Position numbers and translations under genes: made by a program. Below, piece after piece: positions 6,366 through 19,805 of a stretch of 20,235 bases of DNA. Within the stretch, counting starts at the first letter, position 1; the number at the start of each line of letters is the position of its first letter. The stretch is from Promethearchaeota archaeon. GTDB taxonomy: Archaea; Asgardarchaeota; Lokiarchaeia; Sigyniarchaeales; SOKP01. The stretch lies in the NCBI GenBank assembly GCA_048940645.1, contig JBHLOI010000061.1:1-20235 (forward strand). Direction: 5' to 3'. The notes beneath the pieces are model-generated. The model was not told the origin of the DNA, searched no databases, and saw only the letters and a program-made list of their open reading frames with translations.

Positions 6366-8303
6366 TTGGAAAATATAGAATTAAGTAATATTTTAGAATT
6401 AATTAGGAAAAATTTTAAGGAAGATCGATTTACTCTTAAACTCACTTCAAACGTTTTTTTTGACATTTTAAACCAAAATGAAGACAAATTTAATAAATTT
6501 AAACAAGAAATTAAATCTGAATGGGAACAGTTTAGAATAAAGAATCAGAGAAGAATTATTGCCAAAACATATAGTACATTTTTTTATCAAAAGTTTCATG
6601 AGTATTTTAAATATTTTTTACAAAATTTTTGTGGTTTTAATATTGATTCTTTAGATTTAGTAATTAAAGAAAAAATATCAGAAGATACTGTATTTCTGGA
6701 ATATAATTATTCCTTGTCAAATGAAGAACTAGAATACTTTAATGAATTCAAGAGAAAAATTAATAACCACATCAATGGTATAACCTCACCTTTCGGATAC
6801 ATTTATTTAATTGTTTCAATACTAGGAGTTGTTTTGAGAAAACTACTCCAAGAAAAGTTTCATATAATCCTGGATGGGGCTGTGATAAAAAATGGTGAAG
6901 TTAATAATACTATCAACTTTTTAATTGTGATTAAGAATAGTCATGATGAAATGTTCAAAAGTTATTACTATATGTTTCTTTATTACTTTCTAAAACATCT
7001 TAAAGGAATACCAGATGAATATTATGAGAGATTATTACAAGGAAGAGAAAGGTTATATCAAATTGCTTTGGAAGAATACCCATTTGCCAAAGAAAGATTG
7101 GTAGATTTATTATATTATTTTTATAAAAAATGTAATTTATTACAAAATTTTTCTCCATTATTAGATTTCTTAAATTTCGTTTGTGCGCGAGTTGAAGATT
7201 CAGTTTTTTCAAAAATTGATGTTATAAAAAGAGATTTTTTAGCAAATTTTAATTACACAGAAGAAAAGAAGAATGCTCTTATTAAGATATTCGACTTTAT
7301 TGATAAAAAATCTACCCTATATTCCACCTTTCAAGCGAATAATTTACCATCGGTGAGATCGCAATTTAATTTATTTTTACTATATATGAAGTATTATTTT
7401 GGTAGTGGGAGTTTAGAAGCATTTGAAGTTGGTGATTTGTTATTTTTACCCAAAGAATTTAAAACGAAATTAAATCAACGCAATAAAAAATTAAAAAATG
7501 TAATTAATGCATCTGCTATTAAAGACATTGAAGTCTTTCTAGATTACTTCTCAATCATTTCTAATTTTGATAATTTTGATCTACTTTTTGAGAAAATTTT
7601 CGGTAAACAAATTAATCATTTAAATTATGAATTTTTTAAAACCTTCTTAAGGAGTTTAAATTTGAGGATTTTATCATTAATAGATCAAGAAAATAAATTA
7701 ATAACTGAAAATCCTGAAAATATACCTTTTTCATTTACTATTATAATAGATCACGTTTGTCGTATGTTGTATACATTAATTGATAAAATATTCATCAAAA
7801 TTAATCCTAACCAAGCATCTAAAAATTTTATTGACCCTCGAAGTAGATATATTGGTAAAAATATCGCTTTAAGAGTATTAGAATTATTCATTTTCCAGGA
7901 TCTAAATGTTTCAGATGATGTTTGGCCAGATTATATTATTAGTATGAATAGAAATTACTTAATGGAAGATTTAAAGTCATATGAAGTTGAAGTTCAGTCA
8001 CCAAAATTTGATGAAAAATTTTATAATTTTAGGGATATAGCTAGATTTGTAATAACCTACAATTTCATATCCTACAAAGAACAAATTACATTTGAAGAAT
8101 GGTTAATAAATGAGCTTATTTCCCCATTAAATGACTTTATATCTGAAATTAGATTATTAATTAAAAATCCAAAAGACAAAAATGAGATTTATTCTAAATT
8201 GAACAAATACTTTTTAGACCAAATTTCTAATAAGAATAAGGATGTAAAAGAAAATTTCAAATTAATGTGTCAACAACTTACACCCTTTTGGTATAAAACC
8301 TAA
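6366..8303 (+). CDS. Large hypothetical protein (645 aa)
   Basis: Long ORF; TTG start preceded by SD-like GGGGT; aromatic-rich and probably helical; no recognised motif. Confidence 0.85.
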   Translation: MENIELSNILELIRKNFKEDRFTLKLTSNVFFDILNQNEDKFNKFKQEIKSEWEQFRIKNQRRIIAKTYSTFFYQKFHEYFKYFLQNFCGFNIDSLDLVIKEKISEDTVFLEYNYSLSNEELEYFNEFKRKINNHINGITSPFGYIYLIVSILGVVLRKLLQEKFHIILDGAVIKNGEVNNTINFLIVIKNSHDEMFKSYYYMFLYYFLKHLKGIPDEYYERLLQGRERLYQIALEEYPFAKERLVDLLYYFYKKCNLLQNFSPLLDFLNFVCARVEDSVFSKIDVIKRDFLANFNYTEEKKNALIKIFDFIDKKSTLYSTFQANNLPSVRSQFNLFLLYMKYYFGSGSLEAFEVGDLLFLPKEFKTKLNQRNKKLKNVINASAIKDIEVFLDYFSIISNFDNFDLLFEKIFGKQINHLNYEFFKTFLRSLNLRILSLIDQENKLITENPENIPFSFTIIIDHVCRMLYTLIDKIFIKINPNQASKNFIDPRSRYIGKNIALRVLELFIFQDLNVSDDVWPDYIISMNRNYLMEDLKSYEVEVQSPKFDEKFYNFRDIARFVITYNFISYKEQITFEEWLINELISPLNDFISEIRLLIKNPKDKNEIYSKLNKYFLDQISNKNKDVKENFKLMCQQLTPFWYKT

Positions 8304-11021: not shown

Positions 11022-11294
11022 TTAATCTTTTCTTAAACTTTTATCTCGCTGACTTATCTGGTGAGAATGAATAGCACAGCTAATACAATAGTATTTCGTC
11101 TTAGTGGGAGCTTGAATGATTGTTCCAGATTTTTTAAGCTCTGTATACATTCTTCCATCAACTAATGGAACTCTTCTTGTAACAGCCTTAGCTTTACTAC
11201 GAGCAACAAAACGCCCACACTTGGCACACTGAACTTTTGAGTGTTGACCTTTACTTGAACCGCTTTTACCACCACTTTTTCTCTTTTTCGGAAT
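11022..11294 (-). CDS. rps26e: Small-subunit ribosomal protein eS26 (S26e), 90 aa, probable ATT start; absent from the ORF track
   Basis: Manual translation: (M)PKKRKSGGKSGSSKGQHSKVQCAKCGRFVARSKAKAVTRRVPLVDGRMYTELKKSGTIIQAPTKTKYYCISCAIHSHQISQRDKSLRKD*. MPKKR N-terminus and two CxxC match archaeal eS26; it lies next to a CDP-alcohol phosphatidyltransferase, as I recall for TACK archaea. Confidence 0.93.
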   Translation of the reverse strand: MPKKRKSGGKSGSSKGQHSKVQCAKCGRFVARSKAKAVTRRVPLVDGRMYTELKKSGTIIQAPTKTKYYCISCAIHSHQISQRDKSLRKD

Positions 11295-11434
11295 TAAAAT
11301 CAGCCTTTTTAGTATAGTTTTAGATGAAATTAGTTCTAATTATTTGAATAAGATAAACCTTAAATAATTTATCCTTTCTCTCAAATTTTTAATATTATCA
11401 AGTGATTTTAATGTAAGGTTTTAGAAGAACTGCT

Positions 11435-12166
11435 TTATTTCGATTTTACTTTATCAATTTTATGCAAAGATTTCAATGAATATAAAATCCTCTGGAGGAT
11501 GGTAAAAACAAGTAATCCTGTATATATTATAATGAAAATTGGAAAAAATAATTTGAAATGAGAGCCATATATAAGATTAGATAAATAAAAGATCCAAAAC
11601 TCAGTAATAAAAGCGAACCACAAAATTATAAGTCTTTCAGCTCTTTCCATAAATCCTATTCCTTTCATTTCAACTCCAAGATTTTCAGCACGAGCTCTTA
11701 TATAAGAAATCATTATTACTAAAAAGAGAAGAATATAACCCCATAAATAATCGATTAAATTTCCAAATATCAGCCCTAAAATAATTACTGCGTCAGATAG
11801 TCTATCTAAATTTGAATCTAGGAATGCTCCTGCTCTTGAATTATGGCCAGTTCTTCTAGCAACTTCTCCATCAAAAACATCAAAAGCTCCCGCCCAAAAC
11901 ATTAGAAAAGGTACAATCCAAGCCAACCATATGGGAAAATGGAGTCCTCCAATTGAAATAAAGAAAGCAGCAGCAATAGAAAATATAAAACCAATAAAAG
12001 AAAGAGAATTAGGAGAGACATTGTGCTTAATTAAAAGCCTTACTGGACGATCAATAAATTTATCAAGTACCTTTCTTTGATTTTTTCTCTTTGTATTTGC
12101 TTTTTCTTTTTCATTCACTTTTATTGCCGCTTTCGAATTTAGAGATAATATAATTTTAACATTCAT
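11435..12166 (-). CDS. CDP-alcohol phosphatidyltransferase (probable archaetidylinositol phosphate synthase)
   Basis: Signature DVFDGEVARRTGHNSRAGAFLDSNLDRLSD; SPNSLS, SYIRARAE, GFMERAER. The true start may be GTG at 12118. Confidence 0.9.
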   Translation of the reverse strand: MNVKIILSLNSKAAIKVNEKEKANTKRKNQRKVLDKFIDRPVRLLIKHNVSPNSLSFIGFIFSIAAAFFISIGGLHFPIWLAWIVPFLMFWAGAFDVFDGEVARRTGHNSRAGAFLDSNLDRLSDAVIILGLIFGNLIDYLWGYILLFLVIMISYIRARAENLGVEMKGIGFMERAERLIILWFAFITEFWIFYLSNLIYGSHFKLFFPIFIIIYTGLLVFTILQRILYSLKSLHKIDKVKSK

Positions 12167-12182
12167 TAAAATAAAAAATTTT

Positions 12183-12782
12183 TCATATTAATAACTTTAA
12201 ATTTAATCTTATTAATCGAATTACGGAAGAAGCTAAATATGATTGAGTTCCTAAACTTAAACTTGGTAGATTTAACTCAATCAATTCTATTGATTTTAAT
12301 ATTTCACCAGTTTGACTGCCAATAACGAAAATAATATACTCTTGTGATAATATCTCCTTTAGGTATTTAAAGAAATCTTGTCCACTCTCATCTAGTACAT
12401 ATATAGAATATTTTTTTTCTTTATAGACTTTTAATGTAATAAAGATATCTTGATTAATGTATTTAATACCTTTTAAAGGGTTATTACTATACTTTAGCTG
12501 ACCAGTTCTATTTTGGATTAAATCTACAAAATATTCTGTAAGTAGAATTTCATTTTTTGGAAATATCCCCTCATCCAATGATTTAGGATCAAATATAAAA
12601 GTACCATATTTTTCTAAAAATACCCAAATTTGGATATTATTATTAAATCCATTTTGATTCAATAAGGCAGCTAGAATGCATCTTGAAATTACATCTAATC
12701 TTCCGGATGAACCAGGAATTTCTTTAATTGTGTAATTTGTAATATCTACACTACTAGATTTAATAAAGAAAAGTATTCCCAT
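12183..12782 (-). CDS. trmY: tRNA (pseudouridine54-N1)-methyltransferase, SPOUT family
   Basis: IPGSSGRLDVISRC, PKNE, YVLDESG, FVIGSQTG, SLSLGTQSYLAS. Confidence 0.82.
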   Translation of the reverse strand: MGILFFIKSSSVDITNYTIKEIPGSSGRLDVISRCILAALLNQNGFNNNIQIWVFLEKYGTFIFDPKSLDEGIFPKNEILLTEYFVDLIQNRTGQLKYSNNPLKGIKYINQDIFITLKVYKEKKYSIYVLDESGQDFFKYLKEILSQEYIIFVIGSQTGEILKSIELIELNLPSLSLGTQSYLASSVIRLIRLNLKLLI

Positions 12783-12826
12783 TAAAAATTAAGAATGAAT
12801 CCTAAAAGATAAAGAGTTTATTTTTT

Positions 12827-13141
12827 TTAATTTTCTTTTTCTATTTTTCTTTTTTTTAAAAACATTATTAGGTAAAACGTAGAACTCATAATAATGGCAA
12901 CAAAAATTACTCCAATAATCCCTGCGATATACTGATTTTCAATCCAACCTAATATTGGATTCCAAGGTGATTTTAAATTTTCAAGCCATGATTCACCAAA
13001 ATAATCGATTAATACTCTCTCTAATCCATCAGGATTCTCAGAAAGAATTCCTGAAGGATAGCCTATTGCTATAATCAAGATTAATAAAATAATAATTGTA
13101 GAAACTGTAATTATCGGCCATTTATATTTCTTTAAATTCAT
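12827..13141 (-). CDS. nikN: PDGLE-domain membrane protein (NikN-like ECF accessory component)
   Basis: SENPDGLE between two TM helices; 6 nt downstream of nikM. Confidence 0.82.
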   Translation of the reverse strand: MNLKKYKWPIITVSTIIILLILIIAIGYPSGILSENPDGLERVLIDYFGESWLENLKSPWNPILGWIENQYIAGIIGVIFVAIIMSSTFYLIMFLKKRKIEKEN

Positions 13142-13147
13142 AAACCC

Positions 13148-13819
13148 TTACTCCACCCCCAGAATAGATTCTGTTGTTATAAAGCTTGGTTTAGCTTTAT
13201 AAATATAGAAAATAATTAAAGCGGAGATGATCGCTTCACCAATACCAATTATTAAATGCCAAAATACCATCGCTGGTATTGAAATTTCAATTGGAATATC
13301 ACTTGCAACACCAATTTCAATTCCACATACTAAAGCTGCAAGAATAATAGCAAGATATGATCCAATAGCAGTAGAAATGGTCACTTTAATTTCTTTTTTT
13401 AAAGAAGTTTTATTAAACATTTTTACGAGAATTACAACAATATAAAATCCAATAATTCCCCCAATAATTCCCATATTGAAAGCATTTGCTCCTAATGCTG
13501 TAATACCTCCATCTCCAAATAAACTCTGGATAATAAGTATTAAAAAGAGTACAATTAGAGACGCCCAAGGTCCTAAAATAACTGCCACTAACGTCCCTCC
13601 TACTAAATGACCAGAAGTGCCACCAGGTATGGGATAATTAACAAATTGAAATGCAAAAATAACTGCCCCTAAAACGCCGATATATGGTATTAACTTCTCA
13701 GAATCTTCCTTCTCAAATACTCTACCCATTTTAAAATAGCCTAATATCATCATAAGTACTGTAACTATCCAAAGAAGCACTATGGTTATAGGATCCAATA
13801 AACCATCTGGTAAATGCAT
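13148..13819 (-). CDS. nikM: ECF Ni/Co transporter substrate-binding component (NikM/CbiM family; N-terminus is the Ni-type variant)
   Basis: MHLPDG N-terminus (NikM MHIPDG versus CbiM MHIMEG), GTSGHLVGG, FGDGGITALGAN, HLIIGIGE; SD AGGTG. Confidence 0.88.
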   Translation of the reverse strand: MHLPDGLLDPITIVLLWIVTVLMMILGYFKMGRVFEKEDSEKLIPYIGVLGAVIFAFQFVNYPIPGGTSGHLVGGTLVAVILGPWASLIVLFLILIIQSLFGDGGITALGANAFNMGIIGGIIGFYIVVILVKMFNKTSLKKEIKVTISTAIGSYLAIILAALVCGIEIGVASDIPIEISIPAMVFWHLIIGIGEAIISALIIFYIYKAKPSFITTESILGVE

Positions 13820-14019
13820 TTTATTCGCACCTATAAATTATTAACACTTAATTTTATTATCAATAAATATTATTAATTTATAATTTAGTATTACTTTTTA
13901 ATAATGTGATTATATTATAAAAAAGTATGAAGTAAGAAATAGACTATTAAAACAAAAAAATTAGCATAATTATTAACTGAAAAGACGAATAAAAAAGATC
14001 AGCACCAGGAAATAAACTT

Positions 14020-14826
14020 ATGAAGTCATATTTACCGTTTAAACATGAAAAGGAAAGAAATCTACTTAATGGTCTTCATCCGATAATTCGATTTTTACTA
14101 CCATTTTTGTTTGTTATACCTTTTCTAATCTTTAATAACGTCTTTCTTGTAATAACAGTTATTCTAATTGTAACTTGTATCAATATCTTTTTTAAATTAC
14201 ATATTTTCAAAACAATTTCAAGACTTAGAGTTTTAATACCATTTTTATTAATAATTTGTATTTTTATACCATTCTATTTAGGTAATACAATAATTTTTCA
14301 AATTAGAATCGGGATTGTCCTCAATATTTATTTAGAAGGTCTTAAAATGGCACTTCTTTTATTTTTTAGGATAATTGGGGCGGCTTTTACCTTCTTATCC
14401 TTCTTTTCTTCCTTAACATATTCCGAATTTATAGAAGCATTAACAAAAATCAGAATAATACCTGCATTTATTATTGGAAGCATTGTGATAATGCTTCATT
14501 ATATTCCAATTCTCGCAAGTTCTAATAGAAAAGTTTTAGACGCACAGGAATTAAGGGGAAAGAATTTAACCTCTTACTGGCAGAAACTTAAGACCCATGC
14601 ATTTATAATGGGAAAAAATATTGTGAATAACATGGAACGAAGTGAAAAATTATATGAAAGTTTAAAAATGAGAGGTTTTACTGGAAAGATTACTTTTGCT
14701 CCACGAAAATTAAAAATTTATGATTATCTCGTAGTTTTCTTAACACTAAGTCTTATTATTTCTCTCATATTTTTTATAAATTTAGAACAAATATATGTAG
14801 GGGTTTTTAGATTATTTTTGCCATAG
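14020..14826 (+). CDS. ECF transporter transmembrane T component (NikQ/CbiQ)
   Basis: LHP motif, hydrophobic core, AQELRG and ESLKMRGF coupling-helix motifs. Confidence 0.9.
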   Translation: MKSYLPFKHEKERNLLNGLHPIIRFLLPFLFVIPFLIFNNVFLVITVILIVTCINIFFKLHIFKTISRLRVLIPFLLIICIFIPFYLGNTIIFQIRIGIVLNIYLEGLKMALLLFFRIIGAAFTFLSFFSSLTYSEFIEALTKIRIIPAFIIGSIVIMLHYIPILASSNRKVLDAQELRGKNLTSYWQKLKTHAFIMGKNIVNNMERSEKLYESLKMRGFTGKITFAPRKLKIYDYLVVFLTLSLIISLIFFINLEQIYVGVFRLFLP

Positions 14827-15566
14827 AAGTTCAAAACCTTAATTTTAATTACAATTCAGGATTTGAAATTAAAAATTTATCTTTGAAAATCGAAGAAAAT
14901 TCAATTTATGCATTGATTGGAAATAATGGTTCAGGAAAAACCACATTATTACGATTATTAGTAGGTTTGTTAAAACCATCTTCTGGTATGATAAAAATTT
15001 TCAATGAACAATTAACTCGAAATAAAAATAAGCTTTGGGAAATGAGGAAATCAATTGGTTTCTTGTTTCAAAATCCGGATGATCAGCTTTTTGCTCCAAC
15101 CATAGGAGAAGATGTCAGTTTTGGTGCTAGAAATTTAAAACTAGATGATGATGAAGTAAATTTGAGGGTAAACTGGGCTCTTAATGCTGTGAAGATGACT
15201 GAATATAAAGATTACTCCCCATTTGATTTATCATGGGGCCAGAAGAAGAGAGTTGCTTTAGCGGGAATTTTAGTAATGAAACCTAAATTGTTGATTCTAG
15301 ATGAACCTTTTGCTAATCTTGATTTTAAATCAATTTATAATCATTTAGATATTTTAGAAAGGCTTAGAAAAGATGAAAAGCTAACTATTCTTTTCACAAC
15401 TCATAATCTCTTTTTTGTTAAAAATTGGGCAGAAAAAATGCTATTTCTAAATAAGGGAACAAATATATTTGAAGGAAAACCAGAAGAGGGATTAAATCAT
15501 CCTAAGGTTCAACAAGTTCTTGGTTCTTATGATGAGATACTGAGCCTTATCAGAAAAAATATATAA
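14811..15566 (+). CDS. ECF transporter ATPase (NikO/CbiO), probable ATT start upstream of the track's TTG
   Basis: Walker A GNNGSGKTT, FQNPDDQLF, LSWGQKKR, ILDEP, TTH. The frame extends 24 codons upstream (IIFAIEVQNLNFNYNSGFEIKNLS) to TAG at 14808-14810. Confidence 0.88.
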   Translation: MIFAIEVQNLNFNYNSGFEIKNLSLKIEENSIYALIGNNGSGKTTLLRLLVGLLKPSSGMIKIFNEQLTRNKNKLWEMRKSIGFLFQNPDDQLFAPTIGEDVSFGARNLKLDDDEVNLRVNWALNAVKMTEYKDYSPFDLSWGQKKRVALAGILVMKPKLLILDEPFANLDFKSIYNHLDILERLRKDEKLTILFTTHNLFFVKNWAEKMLFLNKGTNIFEGKPEEGLNHPKVQQVLGSYDEILSLIRKNI

Positions 15567-15601
15567 ATTTTTTAGCTATTTTGTTTTATTATATTATTGG
15601 G

Positions 15602-15688
15602 AAAATAATGATGGAGTAGTCGCATTTATCGAGGTCATATATGACTATGATGATTATATGTGCAAAAAAATGCGAACATCCTGAATTT
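15602..15688 (+). ncRNA. Candidate box C/D (K-turn) RNA
   Basis: C box ATGATGG (15608), D box CTGA (15681), canonical terminal K-turn geometry; internal TCGA-hairpin-ATGATGA as D'/C'. Confidence 0.55.
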
Positions 15689-15706
15689 AATAATCAATAA
15701 TTCAAA

Positions 15707-15785
15707 CTGCAAAAAATACGGGCTCTTAACCAAGCAAAGGTAAACACCAATGCGATGCGGTTCGAGTCAGCAACCCTAATTGCAG
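15707..15785 (+). ncRNA. Candidate structured RNA with tRNA-like T-arm
   Basis: Closing stem CTGCAA/TTGCAG; TGCGG-TTCGAGT-CAGCA; about 42% GC over 15701-15840 by hand count. Confidence 0.35.
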
Positions 15786-15873
15786 ATATGATTATGTCCC
15801 AAAACGGCATAGAGATTATTGCCTTCCACGAGAGAACTTTTCTGATTTTTATGGTGTATCCATGAAATGATTA

Positions 15874-16083
15874 AAAAGAGTTAGTGTATAAGGCTACAAT
15901 CTATGCTCACTTTTTTCTAAAATCGTAAAACTAAATCAATACTAGGATTAGAGAAATTTATAGAGTGAAGGTCCTTTTCTTTTAGTCTTTTTTTTTATTT
16001 TCTTTCAAAATTTAACCTAAACATTATTTTATAATGGGATAATAAGTGATAGAAAAGAGTTAGTGTTTCAGGCAACAAAACTA
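15874..16083. repeat. Two copies of a ~30-nt hairpin-forming direct repeat (15874-15903, 16053-16083)
   Basis: AAAAGAGTTAGTGTATAAGGCTACAATCTA versus AAAAGAGTTAGTGTTTCAGGCAACAAAACTA. Confidence 0.8.
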
Positions 16084-16085
16084 CA

Positions 16086-16556
16086 TTATAATAGACCGAG
16101 AGTATCTGAGCTAAATAATTCTTTTAACTCTTTATTAATTTCACCCTGATCTGCTTGAAGGTAGCGGTTTAAAATTGTTGTTATTCTGGGAGCATATTTT
16201 TTCATAATTGCACGTACAAATCCTATTTGTACATTTTTATCTGTTGCGATACAGAGAATTCCTTTACCGACTTTAACTGAAAATATCATACCTTTGTAAT
16301 ATTCAGTAAATTGGAGATCAATATCTCCATATCCTAAAATATGTCCTTGTTCTTCTCCTGCTGTAAAGACTGCTCCCCCTATTGCCCCAATTTTCTCAAC
16401 AGAAATATCATCTTCATTTATAAACGCAAATTTAGCCTCACTCATTATTGTTATTCCAGTATCATCAATAAGAATAACATTTTTTAATCCGGGCGTGCTA
16501 TTGATTATATCATGTATTATTTTCTTTAACAATGCCTCATCTTGGGAATAACTCAA
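16086..16556 (-). CDS. Roadblock/LC7 (MglB/LAMTOR-like) domain protein
   Basis: TPGLKNVILIDDTGITI, EKIGAIGGAVF, QIGFVRAIMKK pattern; TTG start with SD GAGGT. Confidence 0.88.
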   Translation of the reverse strand: MSYSQDEALLKKIIHDIINSTPGLKNVILIDDTGITIMSEAKFAFINEDDISVEKIGAIGGAVFTAGEEQGHILGYGDIDLQFTEYYKGMIFSVKVGKGILCIATDKNVQIGFVRAIMKKYAPRITTILNRYLQADQGEINKELKELFSSDTLGLL

Positions 16557-16644
16557 TAGCCTTAACCTCAGAATATGTTATAAAGAATTTATTTAAAAAT
16601 CACATAAAATTCAATCTTTCTTACTTACTAAGTAAAGCTTCATC

Positions 16645-16675
16645 TATAAAAATTTAATTCGCATATTCGCATATT
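16645..16675 (-). promoter_or_regulatory. Putative TATA box (TTTTTATA) with an upstream 8-bp tandem repeat
   Basis: Minus strand reads AATATGCGAATATGCGAATTAAATTTTTATA, about 90 nt upstream of the Roadblock start. Confidence 0.4.
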
Positions 16676-16736
16676 AATGGTCTGCCTTGCGTTACAAATA
16701 AAATCTAAAAAGTAAAATAAGAATAACCTAAATTCA

Positions 16737-17087
16737 TTAGAATAATTCTTGTGATTTAATAATCTCTTTTAATGGTTTAATTCCATCTTTATAGCTCTTA
16801 CTTTTCTCTAATAATATAAATAGTTTATATCTCTTATTCTTATCAATATCAAATTTTAATTGGATTAGGTTTGGATCTTTTATTACTTTTTCTTTATGCT
16901 TTGATATTGCCCATAAAGCTAATGTATTTTCATGTACCCACAATCTACTTGAGATACTTGAACCAATTGGAAAACCATTACGGTCTGTAATAACTCCGGC
17001 TACGAAATTGGGAAAGTGTTTTTTTACTCGATGTAAAAAATAATTGACTTCAGTTTGATTTATTAGCCTTGTGTTTTCCATCTTCAT
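16737..17087 (-). CDS. Divergent Roadblock/profilin-like fold protein
   Basis: Helix followed by FVAGVITDRNGFPIGS, a typical Roadblock beta-hairpin; SD-like AGGTCA. Confidence 0.6.
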   Translation of the reverse strand: MKMENTRLINQTEVNYFLHRVKKHFPNFVAGVITDRNGFPIGSSISSRLWVHENTLALWAISKHKEKVIKDPNLIQLKFDIDKNKRYKLFILLEKSKSYKDGIKPLKEIIKSQELF

Positions 17088-17210
17088 AAAATCTGACCTA
17101 TCAATAATGCATTACTGATAGGATAAAAGTGATAAAAATGAATCTTTAAATGTTGTATTATAAGGATAACATCCTTTTTTATTACTAAAGTGTAAAAGTA
17201 AAAAAGAAAT

Positions 17211-18170
17211 TTATTTCTTTTTTAATGAGATGCCCAAATCTAAATTCTCTATAAGCTCACTGAATCGATTACGGACAGTAACTTCAGTTACCTGACTAAT
17301 CTTAGCAATTTTCCTTTGCGTTCTTCTTTCTTTAGTCAAAATACTTGCGGCATAAATAGCTGCGGCACAAACTCCCGTTGGTCCTCTTCCTGAAGTTAAC
17401 CCACGAGTTTCTGCTATTTTAATAATTATCTTAGCTGCTTTTTGACAGTCATGTGTTAGTTCTAGCTCAGAAATAAATCTAGTAAGGAAATCGAGAGGTT
17501 TAGTTGGATTCAAATTAAGGACCAATTCATTGGATATAAAACGGAAAGATCTTCCTATTTCCTTTTTATCCACTCGAGCAACTTCGGCAATTTCATTCAA
17601 TGTCCTAGGTATCTTATACATTCTACAGGCAGCATATAAACTTGCTGCAGCTACACCCTCAATACTTCTTCCTCTTATGAGGTGGGCATCAACTGCATCC
17701 CTATATATTTTTGCGGAACACTCCCGAAGATTTTTAGGGAGATCTAAATTTGAAGCCATACGATCTAATTCACTTAATGCAAAAGTCAGATTTCTTTCTG
17801 TTGCGTCGGATACTCTTATTCTACTTTGCCATTTCCGTAATCTATAGATTTGGCCTCTTGATTTTGCGGGAATTTCCTTGCCAAAAATATCTCTATTTTT
17901 CCAATCAATCATTGTACTTAAACCTTTATCATGGATCATATAAGTCATTGGCGCTCCTGTTCGAGTTCTCTTTTTCTTCTGATCAGCATCAAATGCTCTC
18001 CATTCAGGACCACGATCAATATGATTTCCCGAATGGACTAAGCCGCACTCTTCACAAACCAAAAGTGAATCTGAATTTTTTATGATTTTTTTACCACATT
18101 CGGTACAAATATCTTCTTCAGTAGAAATTTCTCTTTTTGGTAGAACTTCTATATAATTCCAACTCGAAAT
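17211..18170 (-). CDS. tfb: Transcription initiation factor IIB (TFB), 319 aa, probable ATT start
   Basis: Zn ribbon CTECG...VCEECG (first half lies upstream of the track's TTG), [17 protein letters not shown], two cyclin repeats ([22 protein letters not shown]). Confidence 0.96.
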
Positions 18171-18218
18171 ATTTTACACCTTCTAAAATTATGAATCGTT
18201 AAAAATTCTATAAACTTT

Positions 18219-18467
18219 TTAACGAATTTTAATATAAAATTTATTTTCTAGACCAAACTGTAGATCTGGCAAAGATTTTACAGAGATAAAGGGTGTATTG
18301 ATAGGACCAAATATTTCTTTGATGTTACCAACCTCTTCATAATTCTCATTGAAAACTGATTTATGTAATATAATCTCAAAATTTTTATTCCATCTTTTAG
18401 CTCTGAAAATAGAATGCTTCTTAGATTTTCCGAGATAGAATAGGTTTAGCTTTATCCAGTTTTTCAA
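18219..18467 (-). CDS. gar1: H/ACA RNP component Gar1/Naf1
   Basis: VGNIKEIFGPINTPFISVK; the gar1-tfb adjacency is common in archaea; TTG start with SD AGGGT. Confidence 0.82.
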   Translation of the reverse strand: MKNWIKLNLFYLGKSKKHSIFRAKRWNKNFEIILHKSVFNENYEEVGNIKEIFGPINTPFISVKSLPDLQFGLENKFYIKIR

Positions 18468-18686: not shown

Positions 18687-19805
18687 TTAATGGAAATTCT
18701 TTTGAAGACGGTATCTTGTTAAACAATCACAGTCATAATACGCATTTTTTTTATTTAAATAGTTAAAATCTTGTGATAATACAAAATTTCTAAGAGTAGT
18801 CATCATTTTTTGATTACATTCTCTTTTTAGGCAATTGTGAATACCTCGTTTCGTTCCAGCTCCAGATGGATCTGAAATTAGACGAGGAAAAGTTGAATCT
18901 TTTTTTAATTCGTGAATTTTTCGTAAGCTTTTAAAAAGAGAATAGAACCATGGAGGTCTATAACGATTTTGATACCATAAATATTCTAATAATGTTCCTT
19001 TTTGAATATTAATGGGATTTATTGATATCGTTTCTACTCCTAAATTAATTAGATTTATAATAGATCCGACACAATCGTCTATAGCACCTTGTTCATTTAA
19101 AAAGGGGGCTTTAAATAGTAAATAAACCCTCACACCGATTCCAATTTCTTTACAAATGCGAAAAACTTTTATAAAATCATCATAAGACATTGCCTTATTT
19201 ATATAAGTGTTTCTAATATAATCATTAACCGTTTCAAGGCCAATCGCTAATTCAATATATTTATCATTTAGTTGGTTTTTTAAATCTATTAATTTCATTT
19301 TTGAAATATATTCTAAGCGAGACTCAATAACAAATTCTTCTATCCTATTACTCTCATATACCTTCTGATAAATATAATTCCTTACTTCTTCAGAGATTTC
19401 ATTTTCATCAAAAAAACTCCCAGAATTAAAAATCTTAAATATAAATTTCTTTTTTTCACTTCTGATTTCTTCCAATTTAGATTGAAAAGCATGATTTACT
19501 TGATTGATAATATGTTTATCGTCTATACTTTCAATACTGGAATCATTTATATATCCACACATTGAACATCCTCCGCTATCGCTTAATGCCCAGCTGCATC
19601 CTTTAGTTCTTAATATAATAGTAAATTCCTTTCCTTTTTCATGTAAGAGGCGATCGTCTTTTATCCAAAAACTAACCGGTTTATTTAGTTGATCGCTTGT
19701 AAAACTTTTTCTCTTTAAAATTATTCGGTCTCTAATTTCTTTAATATTTTCGACAATTGAACGAGAGTTAACTGATTTTTTCATAAACTTTAGCAATCCT
19801 TCCAT
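18687..19805 (-). CDS. raSEA: Archaeosine biosynthesis radical SAM enzyme RaSEA
   Basis: ILRTKGCSWALSDSGGCSMCGY, KIFNSGSFFD, IESRLE, IGLET, YRPPW, GTKRGIHNC; overlaps arcS. The start may be ATG at 19784. Confidence 0.9.
   Translation of the reverse strand: MEGLLKFMKKSVNSRSIVENIKEIRDRIILKRKSFTSDQLNKPVSFWIKDDRLLHEKGKEFTIILRTKGCSWALSDSGGCSMCGYINDSSIESIDDKHIINQVNHAFQSKLEEIRSEKKKFIFKIFNSGSFFDENEISEEVRNYIYQKVYESNRIEEFVIESRLEYISKMKLIDLKNQLNDKYIELAIGLETVNDYIRNTYINKAMSYDDFIKVFRICKEIGIGVRVYLLFKAPFLNEQGAIDDCVGSIINLINLGVETISINPINIQKGTLLEYLWYQNRYRPPWFYSLFKSLRKIHELKKDSTFPRLISDPSGAGTKRGIHNCLKRECNQKMMTTLRNFVLSQDFNYLNKKNAYYDCDCLTRYRLQKNFH

Follow-up and report, generated by a model that had tools for sequence, protein, structure and literature searches.

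Probable Shine-Dalgarno-led initiation at AUU and other near-cognate codons in a family of Lokiarchaeia, with a candidate feedback loop through aIF1

Animal mitochondria initiate translation at AUA, AUU and AUC (together AUH) on leaderless mRNAs and read AUA as methionine, and in Escherichia coli the gene pcnB starts at AUU. The bacterial gene infC (IF3) likewise opens with AUU behind a Shine-Dalgarno (SD) motif, a weak start on the fidelity factor's own gene, and autoregulation is established both for IF3 through its AUU and for eukaryotic eIF1 through its poor start context (PMC4705826). For archaea, reviews give only AUG, GUG and UUG as start codons (PMC7531240, PMC4705826), and in Haloferax volcanii ribosome profiling (Ribo-seq) classed ~30% of the putative alternative starts as near-cognate (PMC7261190). 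Herein we analyse a stretch of 20,235 nucleotides (contig JBHLOI010000061.1 of assembly GCA_048940645.1, hereafter the window) from a metagenome-assembled genome (MAG) of 3.83 Mb and 30% GC that belongs to a Lokiarchaeia-type Asgard archaeon, in which three conserved genes, tfb (transcription factor B), rps26e (ribosomal protein eS26) and the ATPase gene of an ECF transporter, appear to start at ATT.

The codons concerned are the same set as the alternative initiators of NCBI translation table 11 (ATT, ATC, ATA, CTG) and the near-cognates of Haloferax; however, the latter were unvalidated and set aside by their authors, whereas the Loki codons are the only possible starts of essential genes and are conserved across the family. 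Similarly, infC and pcnB are single bacterial genes, as against at least 43 genes in the Loki genome, and animal mitochondria share the tolerance for third-position variants, while the Loki starts are SD-led, remain a minority and leave AUA as isoleucine. AUU starts in single bacterial genes, in mitochondria and in table 11 are already known; in our literature search, which covered few subscription papers, we met no paper describing AUH initiation in Asgard archaea, AUH starts as the habit of an archaeal family, or an aIF1 that regulates its own synthesis.

A sequence-only reading of the window had pointed to the three ATT codons, and all three are present as it described, each with an in-frame stop upstream and no ATG, GTG or TTG between that stop and the ATT. 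In tfb (17211–18170, minus strand, 319 aa, PF08271 and PF00382; ATT at 18170–18168) the first canonical codon is codon 37, which lies inside the zinc ribbon (Pfam match 21–60) and past its first cysteine pair. In rps26e (11022–11294, minus strand, 90 aa; ATT at 11294–11292) it is codon 49 of 90, while the Pfam S26e match (PF01283) runs from residue 1, and in the ATPase gene (14814–15566, plus strand, PF00005; ATT at 14814, alternatively 14811) it is codon 25, beyond the IEV strand, the first conserved strand of the protein. No complete protein would result from any of these codons. The same reading had placed an SD-like motif 5–6 nt before each ATT, which holds for rps26e (5 nt), tfb (6 nt) and the ATPase codon at 14811 (6 nt); the conserved ATPase codon, however, is the one at 14814, 9 nt from its motif, and the SD, clear in tfb, is less so in the ATPase gene and weak in rps26e. 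The 3′ end of the 16S rRNA in the host genome (GAUCACCUCCU) carries a normal anti-SD.

Among the family loci, the tfb start column holds ATT in 66, ATC in 6 and ATA in 2 cases (74 of 78 loci), and ATG in none. The SD GAAGGTG (18183–18177), which is followed by an in-frame TAA (18176–18174; whole element 18174–18183, minus strand), is the sole conserved element upstream, and its T sits 7 nt from the start codon in 29 of 31 loci, with 26 of 32 loci lacking any canonical alternative upstream. On the tfb tree the start codon changed about six times, each time into ATC or ATA; a change into ATG was not seen. Outside the family, two sister families were sampled with five genomes, all of which have ATG at the start of tfb; rps26e, checked in one of them, has ATG too. 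In one sister-family genome none of 64 orthologues was forced to a non-canonical start and SD-spaced candidates were few (small samples). The host genome contains four TFB-like genes (on contigs C43, C86 and C117 and at 17211–18170 of the window), and only the conserved copy next to gar1 needs the ATT, the other three having a nearby ATG. In the TFB tree, the public records L123, L124, L141, L156 and L157, labelled as Odin-, Hermod-, Hod- or Thorarchaeota or Nanopelagicaceae, fall within the host Loki family and are probably mislabelled.

Across 30 loci, the codon aligned with the ATT of rps26e is ATT, ATG, TTG or CTG and is followed by one and the same PKKR motif, which marks the column as the start codon. 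It is preceded by a weak SD-like motif (AGGCTGA, 11300–11306, minus strand; duplex of −6.7 kcal/mol with the genome's own anti-SD), and in relatives of the ATT type the motif keeps a GCTGAT core that also makes a weak SD (median −4.3 kcal/mol). Beyond the host family, eS26 tends toward a weak start: in four of five other Asgard genomes it begins with TTG, in some cases behind an SD-like motif, and in genome G044 an SD lies ahead of its ATG. An SD-dependent eS26 mRNA could be self-limiting, as bS21 is in Flavobacterium. The reason would be that the eS26 protein and the SD duplex compete for space in the exit channel (PMC11698992).

The reading had also warned that gene callers would truncate such genes, which is borne out for ab initio callers and partly for NCBI. 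In public collections (JGI, ENA, Logan and some NCBI records) eS26 appears as fragments of 42 or 61 aa or with spurious extensions, but NCBI often restores the 90-aa protein from its ATT by homology. Such an ATT start of eS26 is annotated by NCBI in a relative, and some of the NCBI records with the 90-aa form nevertheless cut the ATPase at a downstream TTG.

Given that the genome is a MAG, sequencing error, a pseudogene, editing of the RNA to AUG or an intron that supplies an upstream AUG could in principle account for the missing ATG codons. However, dozens of genomes that were assembled independently have these very codons, which speaks against sequencing error, as the sequence-only reading had expected; the genes are intact, single-copy and essential, and the upstream DNA is unconserved except for the SD. 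To our knowledge, U-to-G editing has not been described, and we regard an artefact or repair at the RNA level as barely credible.

The ATPase is a more entangled case. Its SD-like motif AGGGGT (14799–14804, plus strand; GGAGGT in most relatives) is followed by an in-frame TAG (14808–14810), and the conserved start column at 14814 holds ATT in 43 of 52 loci, and all but one of the 52 lack a canonical codon in the vicinity. In 50 of 52 loci the start lies within the 3′ end of the preceding gene, cbiQ/EcfT (14020–14826, plus strand), a membrane subunit taken from the list of open reading frames (ORFs) and assigned to the CbiQ family at the syntenic locus L373. Since the Leu-Phe codons of this other frame constrain the ATT at 14814, the ATPase is the least independent of the three cases. 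The overlap would suit termination-reinitiation, whereby ribosomes leaving an upstream gene restart on an SD-presented codon and bypass proofreading, as would the GTG-TAA just upstream of the tfb start. Against this, the nearest upstream gene's stop is 48 nt away in tfb and ~140 nt away in rps26e, and at locus L195 the ATPase ATT is retained without a cbiQ overlap. Further upstream, cbiM and a small downstream membrane gene are separate in the window (12827–13837), while at L373 (5142–6155) CbiM is called as one protein of 337 aa, which suggests a fusion in some relatives.

At the genome scale, we scanned 3049 ORFs of at least 120 aa for in-frame codons that follow an SD of 5 nt or longer at a distance of 7–9 nt and precede the first canonical codon by ten codons or more, with AAT, TTA, TTT and AAA as decoys. 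ATT, ATA, ATC, ACG and CTG together gave 48 matches where 12 were expected, and 43 of the 48 were third-position variants of ATG. Observed and expected counts were 23 and 5.8 for ATT, 13 and 4.5 for ATA, 7 and 1.3 for ATC, 4 and 0.2 for ACG and 1 and 0.3 for CTG, whereas the decoys were not enriched (AAT 1 against 5.6, TTA 2 against 5.6, TTT 0 against 6.1, AAA 3 against 7.4). The 48 matches correspond to about 43 true genes, or 1.4%, compared with 296 canonical starts behind an SD of this kind, and stretches of three family relatives gave the same pattern of codon enrichment. As the strict SD filter misses rps26e, the ECF ATPase and aIF1 themselves, 1.4% is a floor, and the true near-cognate share is likely a few percent. 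We preferred this decoy-controlled count to a pairwise count of forced non-canonical starts (22 of 688), which contains frameshifts and antisense shadows.

The codon opposite the first methionine in orthologues, which the sequence-only reading had proposed to tally, points the same way: in 683 orthologue pairs, nine N-terminal ATGs oppose an ATT, ATA or ATC that lacks a canonical codon in the 12 codons around it, and eight of these nine swaps carry an SD of 5–7 nt at a spacing of 7–8. In comparison, only 8% of the ATG-start genes have a 5-nt SD, a rarity that agrees with the description of SDs as rare in Lokiarchaea (PMC12993045, PMC7531240). From the orthologue alignments and the decoy-controlled enrichment together, the near-cognate codons are very probably genuine translation starts, and the idea that this lineage has a relaxed, SD-positioned choice of start codon is upheld, where relaxed refers to a few percent of the genes.

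The alternative raised with it, a regulon of near-cognate starts dedicated to one functional set of genes, fared less well. It draws on the fact that tfb, eS26 and aIF1 all serve gene expression and that three cases among ~21 window genes exceed the genome floor. Yet the 48 genes are of mixed function (we read them as gatB, hisB, hdrA, mvhD, small GTPases, transporters and unknowns), and their upstream regions show no shared element other than the SD, which makes such a regulon highly doubtful. Moreover, an upstream stop within 20 nt is found at 23% of the near-cognate genes with an SD, fewer than the 36% among ATG genes with an SD. The mixed functions and the absence of enrichment near stops thus argue against both a regulon and reinitiation; the latter is quite improbable as a general explanation and may hold for the ATPase alone. 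The comparisons support near-cognate starts as a lineage habit rather than a regulon, with ATG still dominant.

Outside the window, the gene of the initiation factor aIF1 (SUI1) on contig C43 has an ATT at 36271 (minus strand), and its first canonical codon comes only after the zinc knuckle and basic loop 1; in Pyrococcus, the basic loop of aIF1 binds the 30S subunit (PMC6237735). Across 38 family sequences the start column is ATT in 32 and ATC in one, and ATG in none; the remaining five, which belong to a single genus and could be aligned only poorly, have ATA and a GTG upstream of it. The upstream motif AAAGGTTGTGA and a 9-nt spacer are conserved, while the spacer's sequence varies and often contains a stop. 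Many family members also have a GTG-started mini-uORF that ends over the aIF1 ATT and has no usable SD; its stop arises because ATT followed by an A-purine codon produces it. In 20 Asgard genomes outside the order, the start of aIF1 is forced to ATA or CTG in five, is GTG or TTG in three, ambiguous in one and ATG in 11, and in the five genomes with a forced aIF1 start, 24 of 25 control ribosomal-protein genes start canonically.

We considered SD-led near-cognate initiation, with weak, aIF1-dependent starts and self-limitation of aIF1, to be the best explanation overall, and from the sequence comparisons a likely one. In the host family, an SD precedes about a tenth of the genes, and most genes start at AUG with none. 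The duplex of SD and anti-SD would hold the 30S subunit at a fixed distance, such that the normal initiator Met-tRNA (anticodon CAU) could be accepted on third-position mismatches in the order AUU > AUA > AUC, and sometimes on ACG or CUG. Such starts would be weak and keep output low, the level of aIF1, which favours proofreading (PMC7531240), would set their efficiency, and the conserved AUU may limit the synthesis of aIF1 itself, as happens with bacterial IF3 and eukaryotic eIF1. We lean, by a little, towards this feedback loop of aIF1 via its own AUU. The factor is a homologue of eIF1/SUI1 and not of IF3, and feedback is established for infC whereas for aIF1 it is suggested by sequence. In eIF1, the homologous SUI1-family factor, the gene's own start signal is suboptimal like that of aIF1 (PMC4705826, PMC6237735), with the difference that eIF1 retains AUG in a poor Kozak context, while in Loki aIF1 it is the codon that differs, positioned by an SD-like motif. 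By extension of the analogy, self-repression of aIF1 via AUU, AUA or CUG might occur across several families of Asgard archaea, and in the Loki family the same setting might also tune dozens of SD-led genes including TFB and eS26; we put forward this wider stringency circuit tentatively, at somewhat short of even chances.

The main competitor is drift that is tolerated under AT bias and has no regulatory role; in this account fidelity is lax, an SD makes the AT-biased change of ATG to ATT or ATA near-neutral, and the AUUs of aIF1 and tfb are frozen accidents. It finds support in the 30% GC of the genome, in the swaps of the rps26e start among ATT, ATG, TTG, CTG and ATA across relatives, in the mixed functions of the affected genes and in the few changes on the tfb tree. 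On the other hand, ATT accounts for 89% of Ile-type codons in the tfb start column as compared with 30–74% at 18 internal Ile columns, so that the preference exceeds that at every internal column, and aIF1 depends on a near-cognate start in five distant Asgard families, where 24 of 25 control genes start canonically. On this balance drift is unlikely as the whole account, while remaining a serious contender.

Several observations weigh against SD-led initiation with aIF1 self-limitation. All of the evidence is comparison of DNA sequences, and the related genomes in the counts are non-independent samples. The SDs of rps26e and aIF1 are imperfect, that of aIF1 with a spacing of 11, and one internal Ile column of aIF1 is likewise 84% ATT. 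ATG in 11 of the 20 outer Asgard aIF1 genes means that the loop is not universal. With about six codon changes, the tfb tree can neither prove that selection disfavours ATG nor settle the question of drift, and one relative has an ATG one codon upstream of the tfb column. ATT is also common in a genome of 30% GC, and single calls can miss by one codon, as between 14811 and 14814.

In the initiation machinery, where the sequence-only reading had suggested looking for substitutions, we found no lesion in aIF1 or the initiator tRNA. Loss of aIF1 was rejected, since 94 of the 111 genomes in the order carry the gene and so does the host, where the zinc knuckle, basic loop and GD motif are present, the factor looks intact and no family-specific lesion is seen by eye. 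An altered initiator anticodon was rejected too, as the initiator tRNA gene has CAU and the three G-C pairs, and so was a reassignment of AUA to methionine, since internal ATG aligns with ATA in 4.2% and with ATT in 4.2% of cases. These results bear on a mitochondria-like scheme, in which a modified C34 of the initiator tRNA or a changed P-site would read AUU, AUA and AUC efficiently and the starts would be near-normal. The dominance of third-position variants fits such a scheme, whereas the canonical initiator tRNA gene, the equal facing of internal ATG by ATA and ATT, the enrichment of the second-position mismatch ACG and the limit of ATH starts to a few percent do not, and we consider it improbable.

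The initiator tRNA-Met gene (C43, ~12089–12225, plus strand) seems to be interrupted twice, by an intron in the anticodon loop and by another ahead of the T-arm; default ARAGORN missed it, and the intron mode at a low threshold returned mostly noise. The genes of aIF1A and aIF2 alpha start with ATG, and aIF2 beta and gamma, uS9 and uS13 were not recovered by our motif searches, which does not imply their absence. Instead of forming the usual archaeal operon, genes for ribosomal proteins, uS19 and uL2 among them, are dispersed over contigs C68, C86, C52 and C46, and uS19 has a long acidic N-terminal extension.

Among the other genes of the window, the TTG starts at 6366, 16556 and 18467 had been grouped with the ATT cases. 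TTG or GTG is indeed conserved at these positions, but these are ordinary archaeal starts and no part of the oddity. They belong to an uncharacterised gene of 645 aa (6366–8303, plus strand; GTG or TTG in three of three loci, TTG in L373), a roadblock-like gene identified by reading the sequence, with no Pfam match (16086–16556, minus strand; TTG in 46, ATG in 5 and GTG in 5 of 62 loci), and gar1 (18219–18467, minus strand, PF04410; TTG in 59 of 76 loci). The orthologues of the radical SAM gene (18687–19805) and of pgsA (11435–12166) at loci L120–L199 have variable N-termini, and many relatives have no canonical codon near the start column of the window, so further near-cognate or shifted starts are possible.

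For the Loki family, these results suggest that AUH starts define a class of essential genes within the SD-led minority. Ab initio callers truncate such genes, which distorts Asgard proteomes and probably the counts of SDs as well. If true, the weak start of aIF1 would extend the autoregulation of start-codon fidelity to the third domain of life, and the lineage nearest to the eukaryotes would possess, in the wider stringency circuit, an archaeal equivalent of the way IF3 and eIF1 regulate themselves. In this way, the finding bears on how the strict AUG selection of eukaryotes evolved.

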